Source: Syntrophales bacterium
GTDB taxonomy: Bacteria > Desulfobacterota > Syntrophia > Syntrophales > UBA2210
Length of the DNA: 64,000 bases
NCBI GenBank assembly: GCA_963666365.2
Contig: CAXXNF010000002.1
Location: 1,120,001 to 1,184,000 of the forward strand
Reading direction: 5' to 3'
The position numbers were made by a program, and so were the translations under genes. How positions within the stretch are numbered: position 1 is the first letter of the stretch; each line of letters opens with the position of its first letter. Shown piece after piece: positions 50,744 through 64,000 of this stretch. The notes beneath the pieces were generated by a model, which saw only the letters and a list, made by a program, of their open reading frames with translations, had not been told where the DNA came from and made no database searches.

Positions 50744-51025
50744 TGCCCTCTTCCTCGGCGCAATAACATAGGACAACATCATGCAAACCCCATATGCCCG
50801 TTCCCAAAGGTCAAATCACCAATTGCGGTTGCTCGTTAGGATACACAGCTCTCCACCACACAACATGGTTCTTACCCGTACCCCGCATGCAATTGGCCGA
50901 TTGTCCAATGTCAGCACTACGTGCATCAGTGCTGCCTGTGAATGTAACCTCGATTCCTCATGATATCAAGGAGAAAAAGCGTTCCTGTCGTGCTGTCAAT
51001 AATTATGCGCACTGTCCCCGACCTT

Positions 51026-51796
51026 AATTCCGGGGACAGTATACTTAATTCAGTGTTTCCCTTTCGGCCCCGGTTTTTGTTTCCGAACTACACGGTCAAT
51101 AACCTTCTCGACGTAATCAACAAATTGACTGCTTCCCAACGGCCTGCCTGTCCTCTCGTGTAAACGTAAGCGCTGCCCATCTTTATCTTGCACATCCAGC
51201 TTCAGGAACGAATGCCAGTCAGGTACAAGAGCAATTAACGGTTCAACTTTGATTAAATTGTCATCCTCTCCCCGTATGTGAGCACGAGCACTGCTCCACT
51301 TGTAATCCGCAGGCCTCGTCACAAGGCCCGCCCGAACGGGGTTCAACTCGATATATCGAGCAGCAGCAAGGAGATGCAGCTCGTCCATTGGGAAAGAAAA
51401 AAAGCGCTCCTGCCACAAGTGCCCGCGCCACTCGTGGCTGAAATTTATCATCCGCGTATATTGCCGGTGTGCTTCGCCAATCGCAAAGCGTAAGCTGTCA
51501 GACCGTGAGGGAACCGCAATGAGATGTACATGGTTCGGCATAAGACAGTATGCCCAGATTTCAACACTGTGCTGTGTGCATGACTGCCTCATAATGTTGA
51601 TATACTGCCGATAATCATTGTCAGAAAAAAAGTCTGCAGTCGCCGATTTCCCCGCTGAGTGATGTGATGGGGAACATCAGGAACAACAATCCGAGCCATT
51701 CGTCCCACTAATTCAGTGCGTCTCCTTTCAACTTCTGACTGTCAATAATTATGTATACTGTCCCCGGAATTTGGAAAGTATACTGTCCCCGGAATT
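51026..51796 (-). mobile_element. inverted-repeat-flanked HUH/Y1 (RAYT-like) transposase element, copy 1
   Basis: Inverted repeats at 51026-50 and 51747-71 (extra end copy 51777-96) enclose the transposase gene. Confidence 0.8.
51050..51708 (-). pseudogene. RAYT-like Y1 transposase, frameshifted
   Basis: 659 nt versus 660 nt in intact copies; one base missing next to the A7 run at about 51631 (AAAAAAAGTC vs AAAAAAATGTC). Confidence 0.85.
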
Positions 51797-51842
51797 AAGA
51801 CGAAATTACGAGCCCCCAGAATTACGCTGAATTATCCCGGAA

Positions 51843-52172
51843 TTACCCAGAATTATCGCCCCCAAAATTACTCTTATCTCGGGATTCACTTTCATCGGAA
51901 TATTCTCTTTTTTTAAACAATTCTTTCATGCATATTTTTAACGCACCTCCACCTATATTTGCTTTTGAAATAGCAGTTATCATGATAAGCAAGAAAAAAA
52001 ATATAGCAATTAATGGTATTGAAATATATTGAGGTAAGTAACTGCTTATAAAAATAATTAGTTTTCTGAATATCCAGACAATAAACCAAAAAGTAGGAAA
52101 TATAAGTAGTGCAACAAATACACCCGCTACAATTTTAACTATGCTGCTCAATTTTTCTTTTTTTGTGGGCAT
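51843..52172 (-). CDS. putative immunity protein for orphan toxin tip 2 (two TM helices)
   Basis: AT-rich small membrane ORF starting 8 nt after the orphan toxin stop; its 3' end runs into the AATTA tract. Confidence 0.65.
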   Translation of the reverse strand: MPTKKEKLSSIVKIVAGVFVALLIFPTFWFIVWIFRKLIIFISSYLPQYISIPLIAIFFFLLIMITAISKANIGGGALKICMKELFKKREYSDESESRDKSNFGGDNSG

Positions 52173-52180
52173 ATTATAAC

Positions 52181-52799
52181 CTATTTACAAGGAGATGATT
52201 TATTTTCATTGATATCTTCTTCGATTTTTTGAAAATAAAATAATAAAGGATCAAATGTTGTCCTTACTAATAAATCAGTCATACCTTGCCCAAGGCTGTT
52301 TGCTTTTACTTCCAAATAATCTCTTTCAGCATCAGAATATTCGTAGTGCCAGTCATACCAATTTGGTCCATGTTTTTTCCATTGCAGCCCCTCCGGATCC
52401 ACTCCGTTCACTGGATCGTTCATGCAGTATCCGTAGAGGTCGGTGCTGCCGCCGGCGAAGAGGATGGGGTCTTTGGCGGTCCAGCGGCCGGTGTCGGGAT
52501 CGTAGTCGCGGTGGCCGAATCTGATGAGGCTGGTGTCGCGGTCGTGGAGCCCCCCGGCAAAGCCGAAGGGAATCGCAAGTGTCGGGTTGCTGTCTGTGAT
52601 GATGGTGCCGAAACTGTCGTAGATGGTTTCTTTTACTATATTTCCGCTCTCGTCGGCAACTGTTTTGAGCGAGCCGACCTGATCATAGGCCAAATAGTAG
52701 GACCCGCCGCTTGTGGTCATGGCATAGGGCATTCTGCCGTCAGCATATTCAAAGCGCATGAGCAGGGCGTCGCTTCCATCATAGACGGCAAGCAGCCTG
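52181..52799 (-). pseudogene. orphan Rhs core fragment with alternative 67-aa C-terminal tip (cassette 2)
   Basis: About 0.41 kb nearly identical to 61390-61804; PVNGVDPEGL then unique QWKKHG...SSPCK; 5'-truncated at the repeat. Confidence 0.85.
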
Positions 52800-52828
52800 A
52801 TCTTAATTCCGGGGACAGTATACTTAAT

Positions 52829-53008
52829 TCAGTGTTTCCCTTTCGGCCCCGGTTTTTGTTTCCGAACTACACGGTCAATAACCTTCTCGACGTAATCAAC
52901 AAATTGACTGCTTCCCAACGGCCTGCCTGTCCTCTCGTGTAAACGTAAGCGCTGCCCATCTTTATCTTGCACATCCAGCTTCAGGAACGAATGCCAGTCA
53001 GGTACAAG
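52829..53008 (-). pseudogene. 3' part of RAYT-like transposase copy 2
   Basis: Encodes LVPDWHSFL...KPGPKGKH*, as in the other copies. Confidence 0.85.
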
Positions 53009-53135
53009 GTAAGCGTACGACCAACTCATATAGCAAAAGAATTTTACATGAAGTACGCTGTACCTAAAACCGGTACAGCCGGTGCTCTTTGATAATATGA
53101 TTACGGGATTCAACCGCCGGAATACGGTGCACTGA

Positions 53136-54746
53136 TTATTGTTTTCCCTGGATGATCAGGCCCCGTTCATCCCTGGGCACAGGCTTCCACTGATCGGGAA
53201 GCAGTTCCCGCAGGCGGTTTACGGGATGGCTCATGATCCGCCGAAGCATGTCGTCAAAGTACTCCCAGGGGTTGACGTCGCAGTTTTTGCAAGATTGAAC
53301 GAGACCCATATAAAGGGCCGCCGCCCGGCCGCCCCGTTCGCTGCCCACGAAGAGCCAGTTTTTTCGACCTACCGCTATGGGCCGAATGGCGTTTTCCGCC
53401 AGGTTGTTGTCGGGTCTTAACCGTCCGTCTTTCAGATAGCGGCAGAGCGCCTCCCGCTGATTCAGGGCGTAGTTGATGGCCGTCCGCAACGGCTCCGAGG
53501 GCGTCGTCCGGGGCCTCAGTTCCTCAATCTTTGCAAAGATTCCCTCAAGCAGCGGCGTTGCATGCGCCTGCCGGAAACGGCGCCGCTCCTCGGGCGTCAT
53601 CTCGGCACAGGGGGTCTCCACCTCGTGATAGAGCCGGGCGATGCGGGCAAGGATGTCCGTGGCCTCTTGAGGACGCGATGAAACCGCCTCGTCGAACTTC
53701 CGTCTGGTATGGGCCCAGCAACCCACTTCGATAATCTCTTCTTTTTTGAAAAGTTCGTCGTAGCCGCCGTAGGCGTCGGCATGGACGTACCCCTGGTAAT
53801 CATTGAGATACTCCAGTGGGCGCGTCTTGCTCCGATCAATGGAGAAGTCATAGGCCGTCAGCGGCGGTCCCGGACCGCCCCGCAGATAGACCCAGAGACG
53901 GGCCTTCTTTACCTTGCCGTTTCCCTTGACCTGCAGAGGAACGGGCGTATCGTCGGTAAAGAGCACGTCCCTCTCAAGGACGGCCTTTTGAAGCACTGTT
54001 TCCAAGGGACGAATGCTCTCATAGACCTGCATGAGCCAGCTGGTTTGGGTGGCCCGGGGAATGTCCACTCCTTCCCGCTCCAGAATGCTGTTCTGTCGGT
54101 AGAGAGGCAGATGATCGGCGTACTTGCTGACGATCAGATGAGAAAGCAGCCCCACGTCGGCTTTGCACTTGGCGATGGGGTGATCGGGCAGCGAGGCGGC
54201 GATGACGCCGGCGGTAGATTCCGATGCCTCCGGCAGCGCATACTGGGGCCGCTTGTAGACGTTGACGATCAGTCTCCCCGGCCGGTATTCCAGCTTCTCC
54301 GAGACTTCCACGGAAATGACCTTCAGGGGTGCGCCCGTGTCCGCATCGATCTTTTCATCCTCGGGCACGTCCAGCAGAATCTCCACCCGTTCGAGATGCT
54401 CCGGAATGGGAACCCGGCCGTGATGCCGGGAGGCCTTGCGGGGCTTCTTGACAGTCTCTGTGGCAGAAGCGTCTTCGAACTGTGCTTTCACCGCCGCATT
54501 CTGCTCTAATGATTGAAGCACCATGTCGTCGAACATCAGCTGACCGGGGTTGATCTTTTCGGACTTGCGGCCGTAGAGCCGTTTCAGCAGCTGTTCCATC
54601 TGATGCTGCAGGGTGGTCAACTGGCGCTGGGCGGATTCGAGCTTCTGGGTAAGCGCTTCGATCTGGGCATCCTTTTGGGCGGCAAATTCCAGAATCCAGG
54701 CAGCATCTTTTCGGTCGATAATCTCTTGTGCTTCCGTCAATATCAT
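53136..54746 (-). CDS. tnpC: IS66 DDE transposase TnpC
   Basis: LYGRKSEK, KYADHLPLYRQ, DDTP, CWAHTRRKF, DNNLAENAIR, GRKNWLF. Confidence 0.95.
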   Translation of the reverse strand: MILTEAQEIIDRKDAAWILEFAAQKDAQIEALTQKLESAQRQLTTLQHQMEQLLKRLYGRKSEKINPGQLMFDDMVLQSLEQNAAVKAQFEDASATETVKKPRKASRHHGRVPIPEHLERVEILLDVPEDEKIDADTGAPLKVISVEVSEKLEYRPGRLIVNVYKRPQYALPEASESTAGVIAASLPDHPIAKCKADVGLLSHLIVSKYADHLPLYRQNSILEREGVDIPRATQTSWLMQVYESIRPLETVLQKAVLERDVLFTDDTPVPLQVKGNGKVKKARLWVYLRGGPGPPLTAYDFSIDRSKTRPLEYLNDYQGYVHADAYGGYDELFKKEEIIEVGCWAHTRRKFDEAVSSRPQEATDILARIARLYHEVETPCAEMTPEERRRFRQAHATPLLEGIFAKIEELRPRTTPSEPLRTAINYALNQREALCRYLKDGRLRPDNNLAENAIRPIAVGRKNWLFVGSERGGRAAALYMGLVQSCKNCDVNPWEYFDDMLRRIMSHPVNRLRELLPDQWKPVPRDERGLIIQGKQ

Positions 54747-54798
54747 GAGCGGGCGTATAGCACATAACTATAATAATGTCAAGTGTTTATATTATTTT

Positions 54799-55140
54799 TT
54801 ATGCACATATTTTGTACCGTTTTCCCACTTTTTTCGGCACGATTCCCTCAAGGAGCATGGCCAGATCCCGGCGCTCGATATGACCGTCGCGGGACTGCCG
54901 GGAAGGCAGCACGAAGGACCCCTGCTCCAGACGTTTCAGCCAGATGGCCATGCCGTCGCTGTCCCAGTACAGGAGCTTCACCATGTTCCGCCGCCGGTTG
55001 ACGAAGACGAAGAGTGATCCCGAAAGGGGATCGGCGCTAAGTTCGGCGCGGACAATGCCGCACAGGCCGTCGAAGGACTTGCGCATGTCGCAGGGGCTGC
55101 GATAAAGATAGATGCGTGCCGATGCTGTCAGGCCGAACAT
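54799..55140 (-). CDS. tnpB: IS66 accessory protein TnpB
   Basis: DMRKSFDGL, LFVF.NRRR..VKLLYWD..G, KRLEQG.F. Confidence 0.95.
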   Translation of the reverse strand: MFGLTASARIYLYRSPCDMRKSFDGLCGIVRAELSADPLSGSLFVFVNRRRNMVKLLYWDSDGMAIWLKRLEQGSFVLPSRQSRDGHIERRDLAMLLEGIVPKKVGKRYKICA

Positions 55141-55439
55141 GGGGAACCATTATGAAGCGTTTCAATAACGGTGCGCAGGGTAACGGGATCGAAGCCGCGT
55201 TCCACTTCGATGGAAAGAAGCGGCCCCATGCAAATGCGAATGCCGGCATAGTCGGCCGTCGAGGATGCAAGTTCGATAAATCCCTGTTGTCCTTGCGGTT
55301 CAGTGAGTTTCCGGCGCCAGGAGTAGAAACTTGCCGTATTGATCTGATGCATCTGGCACCAGGCCAGACCGCTCATCCCGCTTGCGATCTGCCGCTCTAC
55401 GATGGCCGACCAGTGGGCGGTGCGTTCTTGTTGTGTCAT
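55128..55439 (-). CDS. tnpA: IS66 accessory protein TnpA
   Basis: W..IV..Q.ASG.S..AWC, FYSWRRKL; start set at MTQQER. Confidence 0.88.
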   Translation of the reverse strand: MTQQERTAHWSAIVERQIASGMSGLAWCQMHQINTASFYSWRRKLTEPQGQQGFIELASSTADYAGIRICMGPLLSIEVERGFDPVTLRTVIETLHNGSPCSA

Positions 55440-55529
55440 AGGGCATCCTCCAATCATGAAATGTGTTCATGACGGGAAGCTATAATCCAATGTGCGTTCA
55501 AGCGAAAGATGAGTTGGTCGTACGGTTAC

Positions 55530-56017
55530 GGTACAAGAGCAATTAACGGTTCAACTTTGATTAAATTGTCATCCTCTCCCCGTATGTGAGCACGAGCACT
55601 GCTCCACTTGTAATCCTCAGGCCTCGTCACAAGGCCCGCTCGAACGGGGTTCAACTCGATATATCGAGCAGCAGCAAGGAGATGCAGCTCGTCCATTGGG
55701 AAAGAAAAAAAACGCTCCTGCCACAAGTGCCCGCGCCACTCGTGGCTGAAATTTATCATCCGCGTATATTGCCGGTGTGCTTCGCCAATCGCAAAGCGTA
55801 AGCTGTCAGACCGTGAGGGAACCGCAATGAGATGTACATGGTTCGGCATAAGACAGTATGCCCAGATTTCAACACTGTGCTGTGTGCATGACTGCCTCAT
55901 AATGTTGATATACTGCCGATAATCATTGTCAGAAAAAAATGTCTGCAGTCGCCGATTTCCCCGCTGAGTGATGTGATGGGGAACATCAGGAACAACAACC
56001 CGAGCCATCCGTCCCAC
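55530..56017 (-). pseudogene. 5' part of RAYT-like transposase copy 2 (truncated by IS66)
   Basis: MGRMARVVVP...HVH...YIELNP...PLIALVP, then a stop supplied by the IS66 end. Confidence 0.85.
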
Positions 56018-56137
56018 TAATTCAGTGCGTCTCCTTTCAACTTCTGACTGTCAATAATTATGTATACTGTCCCCGAAATTTGATGGCGCCGAATAATTAT
56101 GTATACTGTCCCCGAAATTTCTGTCCCCGGAATTCTA

Positions 56138-56488
56138 TTAAAACCTTTTCTTTCTGTAAAAAAATATAAAAAAAATTCTAATGGGCCAAGCCAAGAAAAC
56201 CGCAATAAAAACGAAAATCGCGCTGATGTTTGGTATGGCTTTAATAAAGAATGAAGCCGCACCGTTAAGAAGAGTCAAGGTGGCCATCAAAAAGCATATA
56301 GCCGCTGCCAACCGATCCCCCATGTTTAAAATTTTTTTTTCTTTGAGATCAGGAAAGAAGAAATGGTCTATATCGAATCTATTTTTTATGATTTTTCCTT
56401 TGTTGTGCCAAATTCCTTCTATAAACATTAAACCGATCATAATCATAATAAAAGCAAGGATGGTGTTAATAGCTATAGGCGATGTCAT
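56138..56488 (-). CDS. putative immunity protein for orphan toxin tip 1 (three TM helices)
   Basis: AT-rich membrane ORF directly after the orphan toxin stop; its stop codon is 3 nt from a repeat end. Confidence 0.7.
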   Translation of the reverse strand: MTSPIAINTILAFIMIMIGLMFIEGIWHNKGKIIKNRFDIDHFFFPDLKEKKILNMGDRLAAAICFLMATLTLLNGAASFFIKAIPNISAIFVFIAVFLAWPIRIFFIFFYRKKRF

Positions 56489-56495
56489 ACCACTC

Positions 56496-58112
56496 TCACT
56501 TTCCACACGGCGATGATGAAGTCCTTATTGGTGTTGTAAAGTTAACTGGTAAACCTAACCCCAAGCCCAAACCAACTGAAACTCCATCGATATATTTTAA
56601 GGGATCATACCATGCTTTATTAGGATCAAACTCATTCCTTAAGGTGATCTGAGCACCACCATATCTGCCTGAACCAATCGCAATCGTTGACCCAGCTTGG
56701 TTACCTGTTCCACTTAAATCTGAGACACCCGCTGAAACACCAATATCTGCCCACACACCAGCCACGGCCTCAGGTTTTGGATCTGTCGCTACTAAATGAC
56801 CTGATGCATCTAAACTTGTTAGCTGTGAACCTACCGTGCCTCCAACTGCAACGGGCCAAGGGCCAGTCGGAGCATGAACACCAGCGTTATAAGAAAACAT
56901 CCATCGCCCCTCCGGATCCACTCCGTTCAACGGATCGTTCATGCAGTATTCGTATAGGTCGGTGTCGCCGCCGGCGAAGAAGATGGGGTCTTTGGCGGTC
57001 CAGCGGCCGGTGTCGGGATCGTAGTCGCGGTGGCCGAATCTGATGAGGCTGGTGTCGCGGTCATGGAGCCCCCCGGCAAAGCCGAAGGGAATCGCAAGTG
57101 TCGGGTTGCTGTCTGTGATGATGGTGCCGAAGCTGTCGTAGATGGTTTCTTTTACTATATTTCCGCTCTCGTCGGCAACTGTTTTGAGCGAGCCGACCTG
57201 ATCATAGGCCAAATAGTAGGACCCGCCGCTTGTGGTCATGGCATAGGGCATTCTGCCGTCAGCATATTCAAAGCGCATGAGCAGGGCGTCGCTTCCATCA
57301 TAGACGGCAAGCAGCCTGGTCAATCCGAGCCAGAGGTATTTTTCGATGATGACGCCATTGACTGCTTTGGCGATCCTTCGCCCCAGCGGATCATGAACGT
57401 AATCGATGGCGGTGCCGTCGGGAAGCGTGACGCCCATAAGTTCTCCCCGGCTGGAGTAGTCGTAGGTGGTGGTGTTTCCCGAACCATCTGTTCTGGTAGT
57501 CAGAAAGCCGTCCACGCTATACTGATAGGAAGTGTCCCCGACCGTCAGAAGGTGATCCTCGTCGGAGTAGGCGTAACTCCTGCCCGCAATCCCCCTCAGA
57601 CTGTTCATCTCATAGACCCTGACGCCGCTGAGATCATACTGGTATTCTTCCACCAAATTCCCGTTTTCATGCACTGTGCACAGCCGACCTGCGCAATCGT
57701 AACCATAATCGTAGGAGTTTGTTTCACCGCCGATGGTTTCCGTTTTTTCGATGATTCTCCCGTTGCTGTCCCGAACGGCGTGCCAGCCGGCTACCGGTTG
57801 GGAGGCAATGCTGCAGGTTTCCTCTTCTAATTCGCCATAGCCGTTATAGCTTCTCTCCACTGACAGATTGCCGTCAGCAACAGATTCGGGAAGACCGTTG
57901 CCGCTATTTCTGGCAATGGAGAATCGTCCCGCACCGGTAAGCAGACGATCCCTGTCATAGGAATATTCTTCCCTGTCGCCGGCATAGGCAACCCCAACAA
58001 GATTGAAGTCGCTATTGTAGGAGAAGCCGAGCGACTGCGCAATCGTACCGCTGTGATGCGCTTCGGTGACCAGTGTTCCGTCGTAGCTGTAGTCGATTGT
58101 CTCCGTGCCGCT
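56496..58112 (-). pseudogene. orphan Rhs core fragment with alternative 135-aa C-terminal tip (cassette 1)
   Basis: About 1.2 kb colinear and nearly identical with 61390-62598 (offset 4486); DPEGR then unique WMFSYN...SSSPCGK; frame is open to the repeat but has no native start. Confidence 0.88.
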
Positions 58113-58117
58113 AGGGG

Positions 58118-58291
58118 AATTCCGGGGACAGTATACTTAATTACTGACAGCCGGTAATTAAAAGACTGGCAGACCGTTGGGAAGCAATCAGTTTACAGAT
58201 AATGTTGAAAAACTGTTTGACCGTATGGTTCGCAGACAGAAGCCTTGGCCGAAAGGAAAAAATCTGAATTAAGTATACTGTCCCCGGAATT
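58118..58291 (+). mobile_element. 174-bp non-autonomous miniature derivative of the HUH element
   Basis: Perfect 25-bp terminal inverted repeats; interior is a diverged element leader fused to the diverged transposase 3' end (TGRPLGSNQFTDNVEKLFDRMVRRQKPWPKGK). Confidence 0.85.
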
Positions 58292-58492
58292 TGAATTATG
58301 TCGCTGGTCCAGTTTTGCCGGACCGGTTCCTCTTGAACAATTGTTGCCTTTGGGCAACAGTTTTTACTTTTGATTTGGTGAATTCCAGGGGCAGTAAATA
58401 AGTATGCTGTCCCCGGAATTAGCATAAATATGATTTGATAACAAGAGATTGAAAGGGGGATAGGAAGAAGTGCGATTTCTGGTGCGGTCACT

Positions 58493-58915
58493 TCATTGCC
58501 TTTTTATGAGCCATTCACCTCCCCGTTTGTACAGAATGAGGGGATTGTCCGATTGGTGTGTATTACCATATACTCTTACCCATCCTTCCGAGGGACATGA
58601 CCCCGCCCAGTATGTACGGATCGTATATTTACATTTTCCTTGACTCCCCTGGCTTTCCGTGGGTTTGACGCATTTGGTGCTTTTTGCCGGGACATACAGG
58701 TCGATGGGATTTCCCCACGTGCAATCGCCTATTCCGGATCCGCTTCCGCAAGGACTTCCACCGGAATCGACGCATATATATACGTGCCACCCTTTGCTCT
58801 CCGTATTTTTGATACAGATACCCGCCGATACGGTAGTAACCGACAGGAGTAAGATGATCAAAGGAATGGCCATATACCCGGTTATTATTCTTAATATTGG
58901 CGCGATCTTCATCAT
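58493..58915 (-). CDS. Cys-rich secreted hypothetical protein
   Basis: SD AAGGAGG, signal peptide ending VSA, 7 Cys in the mature part. Confidence 0.7.
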   Translation of the reverse strand: MMKIAPILRIITGYMAIPLIILLLSVTTVSAGICIKNTESKGWHVYICVDSGGSPCGSGSGIGDCTWGNPIDLYVPAKSTKCVKPTESQGSQGKCKYTIRTYWAGSCPSEGWVRVYGNTHQSDNPLILYKRGGEWLIKRQ

Positions 58916-59020
58916 TGATATCCCTCCTTTATTGGAAAATTAACCTTATTCCATCTTCCCCCTTTCTGTAAGTAATGTCCTTCTGAGAAGGTAATGTCAA
59001 GATAATTTTGACTATTTTGG

Positions 59021-59832
59021 AATTCCGGGGACAGTATACTTATTGGAATTCCGGGGACAGTATACTTAATTCAGTGTTTCCCTTTCGGCCCCGGTTTTTG
59101 TTTCCGAACTACACGGTCAATAACCTTCTCGACGTAATCAACAAATTGACTGCTTCCCAACGGCCTGCCTGTCCTCTCGTGTAAACGTAAGCGCTGCCCA
59201 TCTTTATCTTGCACATCCAGCTTCAGGAACGAATGCCAGTCAGGTACAAGAGCAATTAACGGTTCAACTTTGATTAAATTGTCATCCTCTCCCCGTATGT
59301 GAGCACGAGCACTGCTCCACTTGTAATCCGCAGGCCTCGTCACAAGGCCCGCCCGAACGGGGTTCAACTCGATATATCGAGCAGCAGCAAGGAGATGCAG
59401 CTCGTCCATTGGGAAAGAAAAAAAGCGCTCCTGCCACAAGTGCCCGCGCCACTCGTGGCTGAAATTTATCATCCGCGTATATTGCCGGTGTGCTTCGCCA
59501 ATCGCAAAGCGTAAGCTGTCAGACCGTGAGGGAACCGCAATGAGATGTACATGGTTCGGCATAAGACAGTATGCCCAGATTTCAACACTGTGCTGTGTGC
59601 ATGACTGCCTCATAATGTTGATATACTGCCGATAATCATTGTCAGAAAAAAATGTCTGCAGTCGCCGATTTCCCCGCTGAGTGATGTGATGGGGAACATC
59701 AGGAACAACAACCCGAGCCATCCGTCCCACTAATTCAGCGCGTCTCCTTTCAACTTCTGACTGTCAATAATTATGTATACTGTCCCCGAAATTTGATGGC
59801 GCCGAATAATTATGTATACTGTCCCCGAAATT
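59021..59832 (-). mobile_element. HUH/Y1 transposase element, copy 3
   Basis: Doubled repeats on both sides (59021-42, 59047-71; 59766-94, 59805-32). Confidence 0.82.
59071..59730 (-). CDS. RAYT-like Y1 (HUH) transposase, intact
   Basis: HHITQRGNRR, YCLMPNHVH (HUH), LWQERF, YIELNPVRA (catalytic Tyr), YKWSS. Confidence 0.92.
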   Translation of the reverse strand: MGRMARVVVPDVPHHITQRGNRRLQTFFSDNDYRQYINIMRQSCTQHSVEIWAYCLMPNHVHLIAVPSRSDSLRFAIGEAHRQYTRMINFSHEWRGHLWQERFFSFPMDELHLLAAARYIELNPVRAGLVTRPADYKWSSARAHIRGEDDNLIKVEPLIALVPDWHSFLKLDVQDKDGQRLRLHERTGRPLGSSQFVDYVEKVIDRVVRKQKPGPKGKH

Positions 59833-59837
59833 ACGCC

Positions 59838-60612
59838 CAGTATACTTAATTCAGTGTTTCCCTTTCGGCCCCGGTTTTTGTTTCCGAACTACACGGTCAA
59901 TAACCTTCTCGACGTAATCAACAAATTGACTGCTTCCCAACGGCCTGCCTGTCCTCTCGTGTAAACGTAAGCGCTGCCCATCTTTATCTTGCACATCCAG
60001 CTTCAGGAACGAATGCCAGTCAGGTACAAGAGCAATTAACGGTTCAACTTTGATTAAATTGTCATCCTCTCCCCGTATGTGAGCACGAGCACTGCTCCAC
60101 TTGTAATCCTCAGGCCTCGTCACAAGGCCCGCTCGAACGGGGTTCAACTCGATATATCGAGCAGCAGCAAGGAGATGCAGCTCGTCCATTGGGAAAGAAA
60201 AAAAACTCTCCTGCCACAAGTGCCCGCGCCACTCGTGGCTGAAATTTATCATCCGCGTATATTGCCGGTGTGCTTCGCCAATCGCAAAGCGTAAGCTGTC
60301 AGACCGTGAGGGAACCGCAATGAGATGTACATGGTTCGGCATAAGACAGTATGCCCAGATTTCAACACTGTGCTGTGTGCATGACTGCCTCATAATGTTG
60401 ATATACTGCCGATAATCATTGTCAGAAAAAAATGTCTGCAGTCGCCGATTTCCCCGCTGAGTGATGTGATGGGGAACATCAGGAACAACAACCCGAGCCA
60501 TCCGTCCCACTAATTCAGTGCGTCTCCTTTCAACTTCTGACTGTCAATAATTATGTATACTGTCCCCGAAATTTGATGGCGCCGAATAATTATGTATACT
60601 GTCCCCGAAATT
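59838..60612 (-). mobile_element. HUH/Y1 transposase element, copy 4 (tandem, downstream repeat truncated)
   Basis: 780-bp period relative to copy 3; only CAGTATACTTAATT of the downstream repeat remains. Confidence 0.8.
59851..60510 (-). CDS. RAYT-like Y1 (HUH) transposase, full length with WQERF>WQESF change
   Basis: 219 aa; differs from copy 3 by R>S and A>E. Confidence 0.9.
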   Translation of the reverse strand: MGRMARVVVPDVPHHITQRGNRRLQTFFSDNDYRQYINIMRQSCTQHSVEIWAYCLMPNHVHLIAVPSRSDSLRFAIGEAHRQYTRMINFSHEWRGHLWQESFFSFPMDELHLLAAARYIELNPVRAGLVTRPEDYKWSSARAHIRGEDDNLIKVEPLIALVPDWHSFLKLDVQDKDGQRLRLHERTGRPLGSSQFVDYVEKVIDRVVRKQKPGPKGKH

Positions 60613-60623
60613 ACGCCAGGATG

Positions 60624-60971
60624 TTATTGGAGCCTGTTTGTTGTTTTTATTATCCCCATTTTCATCAAAATATACATAAAAACAAAAAAGGTGGGCACAA
60701 AACTGCAAAGATAATAAGATCCTAATTTTTTCATTAGGCTTATATCTTCGACAAAAAACCATATAATCTTAACTGGAAACCAAATTGCAGCAAATCCAAA
60801 TAAAACAGGAAGAGCAATCCTCCATAATATGTCAAATCCATACAACCAAAAATTTCTTTGTCTTTTTTCAACAACAATATATTTTTTAAATTTATTTACA
60901 TAGACGAGCAAGGCGCTAACTCCTAAAGCCACCAGTATTGCAAAAAGACATACAATGATTTTAGCTGCCAT
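60624..60971 (-). CDS. putative cognate immunity protein of the main Rhs toxin (three TM helices)
   Basis: AT-rich membrane ORF 19 nt downstream of the toxin stop. Confidence 0.7.
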   Translation of the reverse strand: MAAKIIVCLFAILVALGVSALLVYVNKFKKYIVVEKRQRNFWLYGFDILWRIALPVLFGFAAIWFPVKIIWFFVEDISLMKKLGSYYLCSFVPTFFVFMYILMKMGIIKTTNRLQ

Positions 60972-60990
60972 AATTATATCTCACAATCAT

Positions 60991-63900
60991 TTAATAGTTA
61001 GCATTAGCATGAAGTGTCGTTGACACCCCTCCAGCTATAGCGCCACTGAAAAAGGCAGCATCAACAGCTACTGTTCCCCCTTTGAGCATAGCCGTGCCAG
61101 CACCTCCCCCAATAGCACCAGCTAATGCATTAATTGCAACAGAAAGTGTGTCAATATGACCGCACGGCTTTGAAATTTTTTGTCCAATTAGATCCGATGT
61201 TACTCCAACACCTGCCCCTATTGCCGCATTCACTAGAACAGATGAGCCAAACGATATTCCCGCCAAAGCTCCAACAGCGGCACCCATGAAAGCCCCTTTG
61301 ATAATACTTTCTCTCTTGAAAATTGCATCGGCAGTTCCAATTGCGGCACCCACAGCGGCACCAACTCCGGCAGCGGCCAAATTTATAAACAACCCCTCCG
61401 GATCCACTCCGTTCACTGGATCGTTCATGCAGTATCCGTAGAGGTCGGTGCTGCCGCCGGCGAAGAGGATGGGGTCTTTGGCGGTCCAGCGGCCGGTGTC
61501 GGGATCGTAGTCGCGGTGGCCGAATCTGATGAGGCTGGTGTCGCGGTCGTGGAGCCCCCCGGCAAAGCCGAAGGGAATCGCAAGTGTCGGGTTGCTGTCT
61601 GTGATGATGGTGCCGAAGCTGTCGTAGATGGTTTCTTTTACTATATTTCCGCTCTCGTCGGCAACTGTTTTGAGCGAGCCGACCTGATCATAGGCCAAAT
61701 AGTAGGACCCGCCGCTTGTGGTCATGGCATAGGGCATTCTGCCGTCAGCATATTCAAAGCGCATGAGCAGGGCGTCGCTTCCATCATAGACGGCAAGCAG
61801 CTTGGTCAATCCGAGCCAGAGGTATTTTTCGATGATGACGCCATTGACTGCTTTGGCGATCCTTCGCCCCAGCGGATCATGAACGTAATCGATGGCGGTG
61901 CCGTCGGGAAGCGTGACGCCCATAAGTTCTCCCCGGCTGGAGTAGTCGTAGGTGGTGGTGTTTCCCGAACCATCTGTTCTGGTAGTCAGAAAGCCGTCCA
62001 CGCTATACTGATAGGAAGTGTCCCCGACCGTCAGAAGATGATCCTCGTCGGAGTAGGCGTAACTCCTGCCCGCAATCCCCCTCAGACTGTTCATCTCATA
62101 GACCCTGACGCCGCTGAGATCATACTGGTATTCTTCCACCAAATTCCCGTTTCCATGCACTGTGCACAGCCGACCTGCGCAATCGTAACCATAATCGTAG
62201 GAGTTTGTTTCACCGCCGATGGTTTCCGTTTTTTCGATGATTCTCCCGTTGCTGTCCCGAACGGCGTGCCAGCCGGCTACCGGTTGGGAGGCAATGCTGC
62301 AGGTTTCCTCTTCTAATTCGCCATAGCCGTTATAGCTTCTCTCCACTGACAGATTGCCGTCAGCAACAGATTCGGGAAGACCGTTGCCGCTATTTCTTGC
62401 AATGGAGAATCGTCCCGCACCGGTAAGCAGACGATCCCTGTCATAGGAATATTCTTCCCTGTCGCCGGCATAGGCAACCCCAACAAGATTGAAGTCGCTG
62501 TTGTAGGAGAAGCCGAGCGACTGCGCAATCGTACCGCTGTGATGCGCTTCGGTGACCAGTGTTCCGTCGTAGCTGTAGTCGATTGCCTCCGTGCCGCTGG
62601 TAACGGATGCCACCTTTGTGCCGCACAGATAGGTATAGTGTATGCTTCCTTCCGGTGTAAGAACCTGCGTGAGCCGTGCGCCATCGTAGATATGTTCAAT
62701 CCGGTTTCCCGAGGGGAATGTGGTGCAGATAAGGCGCCGGTCTTTGTCATAGAGATAGCGATACGCCCCGCTGACAGGCGCCTGATAGAGCGAAAGATTG
62801 TTGACCCTGTTATAGTCGAAGATATGGCTGACGGAGGCGGGCGTCACAAGGGTTTCACGATTTCCATTTGCATCATAGCCGAAGTAAAGAACGCTATCGT
62901 CCGGCCGATAGAGGGCCGTCATCCGCCCTGCCGGGTCATAGTCATAGGTAGTGGTGAAACCCTGCGGATCGGTCCAGGAAGAGCAAAATCCTTCACCGTT
63001 GTAACTCCAGGTCATCTGCCGTGTTCCCTGTGTCAGAGATGTAAGCCTTTCTCGTCCATCGTAGCCGTAGAAGGTGTCAAAAAGACCGGGGACGCTGCTG
63101 CTTGTGATAAGAAGGGTTGCCGAGTCGTAGGCAGTGTTCGCGGTCCTTCCCTCCGGCGAGATTGCCGTCTTTTGTGACTGAATGACATCCTTTTCTAGAA
63201 CCGCAGCATTGCCGTTAACATTGACGGTTTCGGTAATCAGATCGAAAATCCCGTCGCTGTCGGTGTCTGCATACGATTTGCTCCGTTCGGTCGTCCGCTC
63301 CAACCCCGAGGGAGTGCGTTCCGTCATGGTCGTTATGTAAGGGTATTTATACTGCGGGTCCGTATCGTAGGTAAAGGCAAGATTCATTCCGCAGGACAGT
63401 GTCTTCTTTACCGAAAGACCGTCGGCCGATCGATTGAACAGAGTGGCGCTCCCGGTAGGATCAGTAATAATGGACGCGTATGCCCCTGTTGAATCAGTCC
63501 TATCCAGATAGGATGTCCTATTGCCTTCCGCCGTGAGAACATTGACAAGAACGGCCCCGTTTTCAAGGAGGGCTCGTTCATAATTCCAGCATCCGCCTTC
63601 TTCATCGAGTGCATCGGTAAGTCGACCGGTTGAATCGAAGAGGTGATCGAATCTGTTTCCCGACGGTTCCGTCTCGACGAGCAAAAGCCCCTCGGGCGTG
63701 TAATCAAAGGTGTAAACGGCGCCATCGGGACCTGTAACACCGGTAAGATGGTTGTGCTCATCTATAGTCAACGTGGTAATCAGCCCGTCGGAGGAGACAA
63801 TGGCCGTGGGAATGCCGTCTCCATCGCGTTGCAGTGCAACGACAGCGCCGAAACGGTCATAAATGGCAGTCAGGTTATTATTATCGTCGTATTCGAATCG

Positions 63901-63999
63901 GTACAGCATCACCCCAGTATCGGGATCTATTGTTTGTGTATGCAACCCCGCAGCGGACATAATATAGGCCATGCCGTCATTATCGACAAACACAAGGTC
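60991..63999 (-). CDS. YD-repeat/Rhs toxin, teneurin-like; N-terminus beyond the window; 132-aa Gly/Ala-rich C-terminal tip
   Basis: Many YD repeats; Rhs-associated core FGFAGGLHD...RDYDPDTGRWTAKDP; PVNGVDPEGL cleavage motif. Confidence 0.92.
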   Translation of the reverse strand, partial: DLVFVDNDGMAYIMSAAGLHTQTIDPDTGVMLYRFEYDDNNNLTAIYDRFGAVVALQRDGDGIPTAIVSSDGLITTLTIDEHNHLTGVTGPDGAVYTFDYTPEGLLLVETEPSGNRFDHLFDSTGRLTDALDEEGGCWNYERALLENGAVLVNVLTAEGNRTSYLDRTDSTGAYASIITDPTGSATLFNRSADGLSVKKTLSCGMNLAFTYDTDPQYKYPYITTMTERTPSGLERTTERSKSYADTDSDGIFDLITETVNVNGNAAVLEKDVIQSQKTAISPEGRTANTAYDSATLLITSSSVPGLFDTFYGYDGRERLTSLTQGTRQMTWSYNGEGFCSSWTDPQGFTTTYDYDPAGRMTALYRPDDSVLYFGYDANGNRETLVTPASVSHIFDYNRVNNLSLYQAPVSGAYRYLYDKDRRLICTTFPSGNRIEHIYDGARLTQVLTPEGSIHYTYLCGTKVASVTSGTEAIDYSYDGTLVTEAHHSGTIAQSLGFSYNSDFNLVGVAYAGDREEYSYDRDRLLTGAGRFSIARNSGNGLPESVADGNLSVERSYNGYGELEEETCSIASQPVAGWHAVRDSNGRIIEKTETIGGETNSYDYGYDCAGRLCTVHGNGNLVEEYQYDLSGVRVYEMNSLRGIAGRSYAYSDEDHLLTVGDTSYQYSVDGFLTTRTDGSGNTTTYDYSSRGELMGVTLPDGTAIDYVHDPLGRRIAKAVNGVIIEKYLWLGLTKLLAVYDGSDALLMRFEYADGRMPYAMTTSGGSYYLAYDQVGSLKTVADESGNIVKETIYDSFGTIITDSNPTLAIPFGFAGGLHDRDTSLIRFGHRDYDPDTGRWTAKDPILFAGGSTDLYGYCMNDPVNGVDPEGLFINLAAAGVGAAVGAAIGTADAIFKRESIIKGAFMGAAVGALAGISFGSSVLVNAAIGAGVGVTSDLIGQKISKPCGHIDTLSVAINALAGAIGGGAGTAMLKGGTVAVDAAFFSGAIAGGVSTTLHANANY

Positions 64000-64000
64000 G

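Follow-up and report, generated by a model that had tools for sequence, protein, structure and literature searches.

How a transposable element comes to be bordered by a series of short copies of its own outermost bases is the question raised by a stretch of 64,000 nucleotides (the window, to which all positions refer unless a contig or locus is named) on contig CAXXNF010000002.1 of a Syntrophales bacterium. In the element in question, inverted ends of about 25 nt that hold GGGGACAG enclose the gene of a RAYT-like Y1/HUH transposase, the pair of ends reading AATTCCGGGGACAGTATAC(T/A)TAATT ... AATTA(A/T)GTATACTGTCCCCGGAATT, and just outside one of these ends the word AATTA is found seven times in short succession. 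In the following, evidence is presented that this tract is very probably a ladder of nested partial copies (rungs) of the outer tip of a TIRYT/TIRtron end, and it is proposed, with a probability that we put at roughly 0.45, that the ladder is a by-product of the element's own enzyme, formed by local and repeated nicking and re-copying at the end.

The AATTA tract and its counterparts in the same genome

On direct reading the sequence is identical to the letters quoted when the tract was first described, and a word search of the window places AATTA on the + strand at 51793, 51804, 51820, 51830, 51841, 51851 and 51866; the seven copies claimed beyond the element end are indeed present, on a single strand and within a span of 78 nt. 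Over both strands of the 64-kb window there are 141 AATTA, equal to the shuffle mean of 141, and the word is enriched locally only. From its genome-wide rate of 0.57-0.72 per kb per strand (4.0-Mb genome), 0.05 AATTA would be expected in 78 nt (Poisson P(>=7) of about 2e-13), and the tract is the sole cluster of seven AATTA in the genome, the next densest having five. Public reads were consulted in the form of Logan contigs from four runs of two studies. Three of these contigs extend across the ladder and do not differ from the window at any position over 51737/51742-52200, and, the contigs of two studies being in agreement, the tract is therefore no artefact of one assembly; no variation in rung number is seen in these spanning contigs, in which rare variants are hidden.

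The end TACTGTCCCCGGAATT occurs as two direct copies just before the tract (51756-51771 and 51781-51796), and the complete inverted end is followed by one long and six short rungs (table 1), with spacings between successive AATTA of 11, 16, 10, 11, 10 and 15 nt. The short rungs have the layout [0-5 C][NN]AATTA, i.e. that of a partial copy of the tip ...GTCCCCGGAATT(A), and the dinucleotides before AATTA are, in the order of the seven rungs, GG, GA, AG, TG, GG, AG and AA. The initial annotation held that the tract is not a slippage-type repeat, which is correct in so far as the constant period of such a repeat is not found here, but has to be qualified, since with Tandem Repeats Finder the four rungs in the middle (51815-51857) come out as a degenerate array of period 10/21 (score 52-65, 78% matches). 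This score speaks for replication slippage or template switching without an enzymatic nick, an explanation that deserves to be taken seriously even if we consider it rather unlikely as the sole cause. A replication fork would stall at the inverted-end hairpin or at a bound protein, the nascent strand would realign on the C-run or on microhomology, and the tip would be duplicated together with a few flank bases, with minisatellite-like expansion to follow.

The genome contains 51 element tips, many of which belong to gene-less hairpin doublets (C1:200274/200304, C1:1274038/1274101, C2:600009/600038 and C2:1356212/1356243), i.e. structures that could stall forks as slippage would require. Six of the 10 clusters with at least four AATTA in 80 nt adjoin ends of this element, and a further AATT lies within 30 nt outward of 19 of the 44 primary tips, compared with 2/44 for the stretch 100-130 nt further outward and 12.1% for 5000 AATT sites picked at random from the genome. 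Individual ladders read CTGTCCCCGGAATTACG twice and then GAATTA (C1:200304), GGAATTAC, GGAATTAC and CTGGAATTAC (C1:399389), or CTGTCCCCGGAATTAC four times (C2:1216541); beside the CCCCTTAATT variant at C2:343404/343431 the rungs copy TTAATT, and C2:1187822 is another clear example. Within the window, two further features recorded in the initial annotation were recovered, namely GAAATTACG following other ends (59817-59832 and 60597-60612) and a small version of the ladder at 58286-58298, with the two rungs GGAATT-TGAATTA. The element beside the tract is 99.3% identical to that of the intact copy at 59047-59793, and yet seven rungs at the former are set against none at the latter, which has a doubled end without short rungs.

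The dinucleotide that separates the C-run from AATT (GG, GA, AA, TT or AG) is hypervariable even where the ends are otherwise nearly the same, as seen at C2:1356212/1356243, at C2:343404/343431 and at locus L122 of genome G014. In the hairpin doublets both arms carry the same dinucleotide variant, so the arms stay complementary.

Tip-anchored reduplication in homologous elements

Homologues of the transposase were found in 36 of 41 related genomes, and a species-representative collection gave 478 confirmed matches, from which 80 loci from many phyla were taken; sufficient flank was available for 78 of the loci, of which 56 showed inverted ends, and 15 loci from relatives were also included in the survey of ladders. 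In these 56 loci and the 15 of the relatives the outward sequence is very often a ladder of each element's own tip, e.g. CGAATTAA five times (L023), CGGAATTA eight times (L062), CGATTG seven times (L069), CGAATC six times (L081), CCGGAACT five times (L085) and GATTT.. seven times (L090), with CTATTTTTG and CCTTTTATTT as further rung types and GGAACT and CTATTT as other rung tips in relatives (core forms AACT, AATC, ATTG and ATTT). A search for similar ladders beside homologous elements had been suggested as a check, and equivalent ladders do stand at the ends of many homologues; the special role assigned to AATTA or AATT as a cleavage word is instead not borne out, since the rungs in relatives copy whatever tip the element has. 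As judged from this distribution, the ladder is a scar pattern of an element family found in many bacteria.

The association with the tip was quantified by counting extra copies of the tip 5-mer within 90 nt outward of 97 ends, with a mock boundary 110 nt further out and the same 5-mers in a far window as controls. At least two extra copies are present at 33/97 real ends, 8/97 mock boundaries and 4/97 far windows, and at least three at 18/97, 2/97 and 2/97, respectively, while 28/97 ends have no extra tip 5-mer. The ends with at least two extra copies comprise 13 upstream and 20 downstream ones, so that both element ends are affected. Slippage by itself does not readily account for an effect that is limited in this way to the outer tip.

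The geometry of the rungs bears on slippage in both directions. One uniform period is found in only 2 of 34 ladders and often the final flank is not rich in C (L023, L062, L085 and L099), both of which argue against it. In a set of 111 rungs, which includes eight ends of the window's genome, 76 have a spacing of 7-12 nt, and the clustering of rung sizes in this range, whatever the tip sequence, is equally unfavourable to it. On the other hand, the inner rung boundary lies in or at the C-run, i.e. at the outer edge of the GGGGWSAS box, in 66/111 cases (24 boundaries precede the C-run and 21 lie beyond it), where the C-run would offer the microhomology that a slipping strand needs. The match to the tip is longer for the innermost than for the outermost rung in 24 ladders, shorter in 4 and equally long in 6 (n=34), some of the matches of 'outermost' rungs probably being due to chance. 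A frequent layout consists of the intact end, one long rung of 18-29 nt and several short rungs, and the window ladder is built alike.

Near-identical copies allow ladders to be compared on a constant background. Genome G014 holds many copies of its element, of which those at L120, L122, L124 and L125 share 728-nt cores that are 99-100% identical. Within 104 nt, the extra rungs on the left and right sides number 7 and 0 at L120, 0 and 2 at L122, 5 and 3 at L124, and 0 and 2 at L125; L121 has 9 on the left, its right end not having been found, and a single GAACT about 85 nt out at the right end of L120 was counted as chance. Four more rungs follow beyond 104 nt on the left of L120. GGAACT is the tip at every left end except that of L122 (AGAACT), GGAATT is the tip at every right end, and the rungs match the type of the adjacent tip, GAACT on the left and GAATT on the right, with one exception (L122 right); furthermore, site-specific flank bases are found inside the rungs (..CTCTG at L120, ..TTCGGGC at L125). 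Since the rungs match the adjacent tip and carry bases of their own site, the simplest reading is that the ladders were made locally after insertion, rather than carried in with the element, and, likewise on the simplest reading, they grow at a rate far above that of point mutation. The ends of elements of this transposase family undergo a fast, local, tip-anchored and iterated partial reduplication that is specific to them. With 0 to at least 9 rungs at 99-100% identical cores, the element ends are among the fastest-changing sequences of their genomes, and ladders matter for strain typing; slippage would need a very high local rate to produce the same range.

The longest ladder seen is that on the left side of L120, where at least 11 rungs take up about 160 nt and form suffix-sharing blocks (..CTCTG inner, ..CTCG outer). 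The outermost rung and four flank bases are common to L120 and L121, the flanks beyond being unrelated. That AATT is the target-site duplication of a palindromic target was considered and is unlikely, AACT being present in 7/7 left and AATT in 4/4 right ends of G014 at different sites.

A selected function of the array, with the rungs serving as extra, iteron-like binding or cleavage sites of the transposase or as the coding or terminator tail of the neighbouring open reading frame (ORF), would have to be reconciled with this same variability, and is in our view very improbable. AATTA is intact in all seven rungs of the window, although the rungs are defined by that word, and, as the initial annotation had it for what it called an immunity ORF, the last nine codons and the stop of the ORF at 51843..52172, which ends ...SNFGGDNSG, are read from the outer rungs, the stop codon lying inside the fifth AATTA. 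Against a function stand the 0 to at least 9 rungs among copies with 99-100% identical cores and the 28/97 ends that have no extra tip 5-mer. Moreover, as single-stranded DNA, 51772-51875 folds no better than shuffled sequence (z = -1.04, 33/200 shuffles folding equally well), Rfam gives no match at E <= 1 over 50900-52300, and the ORF is without a homologue that could show a conserved tail, none being found in 60 relatives and only the ORF itself among 5.8 billion proteins. For annotation it is of relevance that the stop codon and the C-terminal tail of an ORF can be provided by rungs, as is the case here.

A possible origin by nicking and re-copying

In the cycle that is proposed here, the transposase would bind the GGGGACAG box and nick the strand that has the element tip at its 5' end (5'-flank^TAATTCCGGGGACAG; nick 5'-flank^TAATTCCGGGG...), remaining covalently joined to the 5' phosphate of the tip and leaving the flank with a 3'-OH. 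A host polymerase would extend the latter by a few bases, typically 7-12, until it meets the bound enzyme, and the new 3'-OH would resolve the tyrosine link, with the result that the new short copy and the old tip both stay. Each cycle would add a rung next to the intact end and push the older rungs outward, and slippage or unequal exchange among existing rungs would later remodel the array. In this cycle, the nick (both where and on which strand it falls), the extension by a polymerase and the resealing are inferred. Such a cycle would lead to tip anchoring, to sizes of 7-12 nt, to boundaries at the edge of the conserved box and to inner rungs that tend to be better copies; it would also affect both ends, because each strand has an element tip at its 5' end.

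Several observations weigh against this proposal. Many rungs hold 1-6 local flank bases (AGTTCA at C2:343431, CCAA at 59021-59062, CTG at L120), and several duplications cross the junction, as slippage would allow. A tip-exact nick would not copy flank bases, so that either the nick falls variably outside the tip or plain tandem duplication contributes. Rungs are also arranged in suffix-sharing blocks (L120, L121), as copying from a neighbouring rung by slippage would give, and, taken together with the period-10 score of Tandem Repeats Finder, these blocks imply that slippage or unequal exchange certainly contributes. The long rung is usually the innermost one, which the cycle does not specifically predict; the same seven rungs are found in contigs from two studies, with no ongoing change seen; and the adjacent transposase gene is frameshifted, so the enzyme would need to be supplied in trans by the copies at 59071 and 59851. 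TIRYT/TIRtron elements are, moreover, reported to be widespread but known from sequence comparison alone, and the parts of the literature covered here (PMC3733652, PMC6006769) give no cleavage site, strand preference or mechanism for them. Finally, the rung dinucleotides of the window vary far beyond the 0.7% divergence of the resident element, a diversity that would not be expected if the resident tip had recently been re-copied faithfully, and that leaves room for re-use of the site or for error-prone copying.

Re-use of the site is central to the explanation by successive occupancy, according to which elements would insert by way of tip-like sequence at a landing pad and then leave or be truncated, each leaving behind a fragment of its end. 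The excess of rung diversity over the divergence of the resident element would fit such a history, as would the finding that rung dinucleotides of the window match end variants found elsewhere (GA at 56065-60612, AA at C2:1356212/1356243, AG at L028 and L031) and that rung 2 with the following ACG corresponds to tip and flank of the copies at 59817 and 60597. Some target preference is hinted at by AC right after the tip, which is found in 12/51 cases against about 6% expected, many ends reading ...AATTAC, and which could be a preference in targeting or in cleavage. The G014 rungs, however, match the adjacent tip, with the one exception given above, and carry the flank bases of their own site. 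No empty or differently occupied allele was found in the Logan contigs, in the corresponding region of the same-genus genome G001 (in which a flanking gene is 72% identical and homology is lost at the insertion, the relative being too distant to define the element boundary) or among metagenome contigs, searched for the unique 29 nt of flank at 51871-51899 (0 exact matches). Furthermore, excision of the IS608-type by Y1 enzymes is seamless by chemistry, as far as the part of PMC6006769 covered here describes it, so that there is no known route to remnants of 5-15 nt. Successive occupancy is, on balance, an improbable source of the ladders. For the same reasons, namely the match to the adjacent tip and the site-specific flank bases in G014, the excision scars of repeated cut-and-join events suggested by the initial annotation are less likely than local re-copying, while the broader idea of footprints of iterative transposase activity retains its core, in that the units derive from the last bases of the end and are best read as the outcome of an iterative process linked to the element.

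Among the distinct flanks of the genome-wide tips, the base after the tip is A in 21/49 and the next base is C in 21/49.

Beyond the local nick-and-recopy cycle as such, a more far-reaching version is put forward tentatively, in which the ladders would be an in-genome record of an HUH transposase nicking its own terminus, followed by abortive nick-primed synthesis. Each rung would correspond to a failed or idling cycle, its start indicating the cut site and strand, and its length the footprint up to the GGGGWSAS box. The tip-anchored mutational signature, found at about one third of the ends and in many phyla, provides a testable hypothesis for the position and strand of the cut, and the ladder may show where and how the enzyme cuts DNA; if true, the cut site, polarity and activity history of a phylum-spanning transposase class would be readable from genome sequences alone. 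If slippage alone were true, the result would be a useful description of a hypervariable repeat class, mechanistically ordinary. In addition, further insertions might be attracted by the ladders, which would then serve as self-made landing pads.

Related systems and the surrounding locus

The transposase matches Pfam Y1_Tnp (PF01797, E 5.4e-14), with H-V-H and Y-IEL-NP readable in its translation, and its nearest solved structure is that of E. coli TnpA_REP (PDB 4er8, E 4.4e-5). Among the NCBIfam models, REP_Tyr_transpos (REP-associated tyrosine transposase) gives 77.7 bits, just under the cut-off of 80, and transpos_IS200 gives 22.8 bits, with a cut-off of 55. The gene has 18 matches in the genome, five of them inside the window, and the copies are 98-99% identical, by which measure it is multi-copy and recently mobile. 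The inverted ends of intact copies are 22-28 nt long and are inverted copies of each other, and direct reading of the 25-nt end sequence finds no GTAG.

By these features the element is a member of a known, barely studied class, the TIRtron/TIRYT architecture, named by Di Nocera et al. 2013 with GGGGWSAS as the motif of the terminal inverted repeats, or TIRs (PMC3733652). As described in the covered part of that work, such elements carry, like the present one, a RAYT-like Y1/HUH gene between long TIRs with GGGGWSAS (here GGGGACAG), and their TIRs are also found gene-less, as singles, dimers and groups. In the homologues of our survey the motif is mostly GGGGACA(C/G/T), with GGGACAG or GGGGACG in a few. 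Most TIRYTs are assigned to TnpA-Y1 subclass 2.1 in the part of Quentin et al. 2018 covered here (PMC6006769), a subclass with a conserved C-terminal HTH/DnaA-like extension (HTH, helix-turn-helix); in the present protein the Pfam match ends at residue 121/219, and in the extension of about 80 aa past the Y1 core no HTH domain and no second Pfam family was detected at E <= 0.01. Unlike what is seen here, partial-tip ladders are not described in the covered part of PMC3733652, which is without the terms 'duplication', 'target site' and 'truncated', and no description of tip ladders was found in the literature on TIRYT, on RAYT/TIR tyrosine transposases or on HUH nick-linked tandem duplication, supplements excluded.

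The REP/BIME sequences and TnpA_REP (RAYT) of E. coli and relatives resemble the present system in having a homologous enzyme (4er8) and short repeats spread through the genome. They differ in consisting of GTAG-tagged short hairpins, cut at CT or CA, with a single-copy domesticated gene, according to the covered part of PMC8266576, whereas the absence of GTAG, the long TIRs and the 18 gene matches set the element apart from a REPtron. The same part of that source describes the chemistry on which the proposed cycle draws: Y1/HUH enzymes cut single-stranded DNA, joining their tyrosine to the 5' phosphate and leaving a 3'-OH; with TnpA_REP the Tyr-5'P link is accompanied by a 3'-OH that 'can serve to prime replication' or resolve the link, and the enzyme joins any supplied oligonucleotide 3'-OH (PMC8266576).

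With the IS200/IS605 group (IS608) the element shares the Y1 transposase fold (PF01797), and single-strand cut-and-join chemistry would be expected. In the parts of PMC6006769 and PMC8266576 covered here, IS608-type elements are characterized by subterminal hairpins that differ between the ends, by the lack of TIRs and by seamless excision. Membership in this group is not indicated by the present element, whose ends are mutually inverted and whose transpos_IS200 score is under the cut-off. To our knowledge, no ladders are known at IS200/IS605 elements. The ..TTAC made up of the tip and an AC flank is reminiscent of the IS608 target word, and for such a TTAC target the 12/51 tips followed by AC are suggestive.

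Two more distant systems show parts of the proposed geometry. The pT181 RepC/RepC* protein is a tyrosine nickase that keeps a 10-12-nt oligonucleotide, starting at the nick site, as an adduct after synthesis has run slightly past the nick, and the size is near that of the 7-12-nt rungs (PMC5703833); it belongs, however, to another fold family and initiates plasmid replication, the protein is inactivated by the adduct, and re-insertion of the latter into DNA is not known from the covered part of that source. In prime editing, as far as PMC12571883 was covered, a nick-primed 3' strand that fails to displace the 5' strand leads to tandem-duplication-like insertions, in which, as in the proposed cycle, the 3' extension and the retained 5' strand are joined to give a short direct duplication at the nick; with an engineered Cas9 nickase and a reverse transcriptase in eukaryotic cells, this system is an analogy for geometry only.

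The features of the ladder locus and the sibling ends of the window are listed in table 1.

Table 1. Features of the ladder locus and related element ends in the window.
Feature	Position	Strand	Details
Inverted end (TIR), 3' side of transposase gene, AATTCCGGGGACAGTATACTTAATT	51026..51050	not assigned	
Y1/HUH (RAYT-like, TIRYT) transposase gene, frameshifted	51050..51709	-	residues 19-219 at 51053-51655, residues 1-29 at 51622-51708
Complete inverted end, 5' side of gene, AATTATGTATACTGTCCCCGGAATT	51747..51771	+	holds complement of GGGGACAG, fits GGGGWSAS box
Rung 1 (long), GTATACTGTCCCCGGAATTA	51772..51797	+	6-nt spacer TGGAAA, perfect copy of last 19 nt of end, one further A
Six short rungs, AGACGAAATTA / CGAGCCCCCAGAATTA / CGCTGAATTA / TCCCGGAATTA / CCCAGAATTA / TCGCCCCCAAAATTA	51798..51870	+	partial tip copies
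109-aa orphan ORF	51843..52172	-	downstream of Rhs/YD C-terminal fragment; immunity-like by position only
Sibling end: two full end copies 39 nt apart, one extra short rung (T-CTGTCCCCGGAATT)	56065..56134	+	
End of gene-less derivative, one extra rung (GGAATT-TGAATTA)	58276..58298	+	
Two intact tandem element copies	59047..60612	-	219-aa genes 59071-59730 and 59851-60510; doubled end each; ACGCC after both right tips

The stretch from 51000 to 64000 is an Rhs/YD toxin locus with orphan cassettes, in which a minus-strand unit is made up of an Rhs C-terminal fragment, a small orphan ORF and a TIRYT element. For two of the Rhs fragments, the 5' limit falls exactly at an element tip (52804/52805 and 58117/58118). 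TIRYT elements may have created or shuffled the orphan cassettes of this locus. One TIRYT copy (52805-56134) is interrupted by an IS66-family element, with the IS66 transposase at 53136-54746 and accessory ORFs to about 55457, and its own transposase is split into residues 160-219 at 52829-53011 and residues 1-166 at 55520-56017.

The two tandem copies at 59047-60612 are arranged head to tail, with the junction ...GAAATT-ACGCC-CAGTATAC, and the second copy is without the first 11 nt of its end. As ACGCC recurs after the second copy, the arrangement resembles a 'rung' of 780 nt, i.e. a tandem duplication anchored at the same tip. In the frameshifted gene beside the ladder, contigs of three other runs have an extra A in the A-run at 51624, which may come from sibling copies. 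On the far side of that element, a solitary inverted fragment of the other end type (CTGTCAATAATTATGCGCACTGTCCCCG) occupies 50990-51025, separated by a 5-nt spacer from the left tip, with which it pairs to form a 10-bp hairpin.

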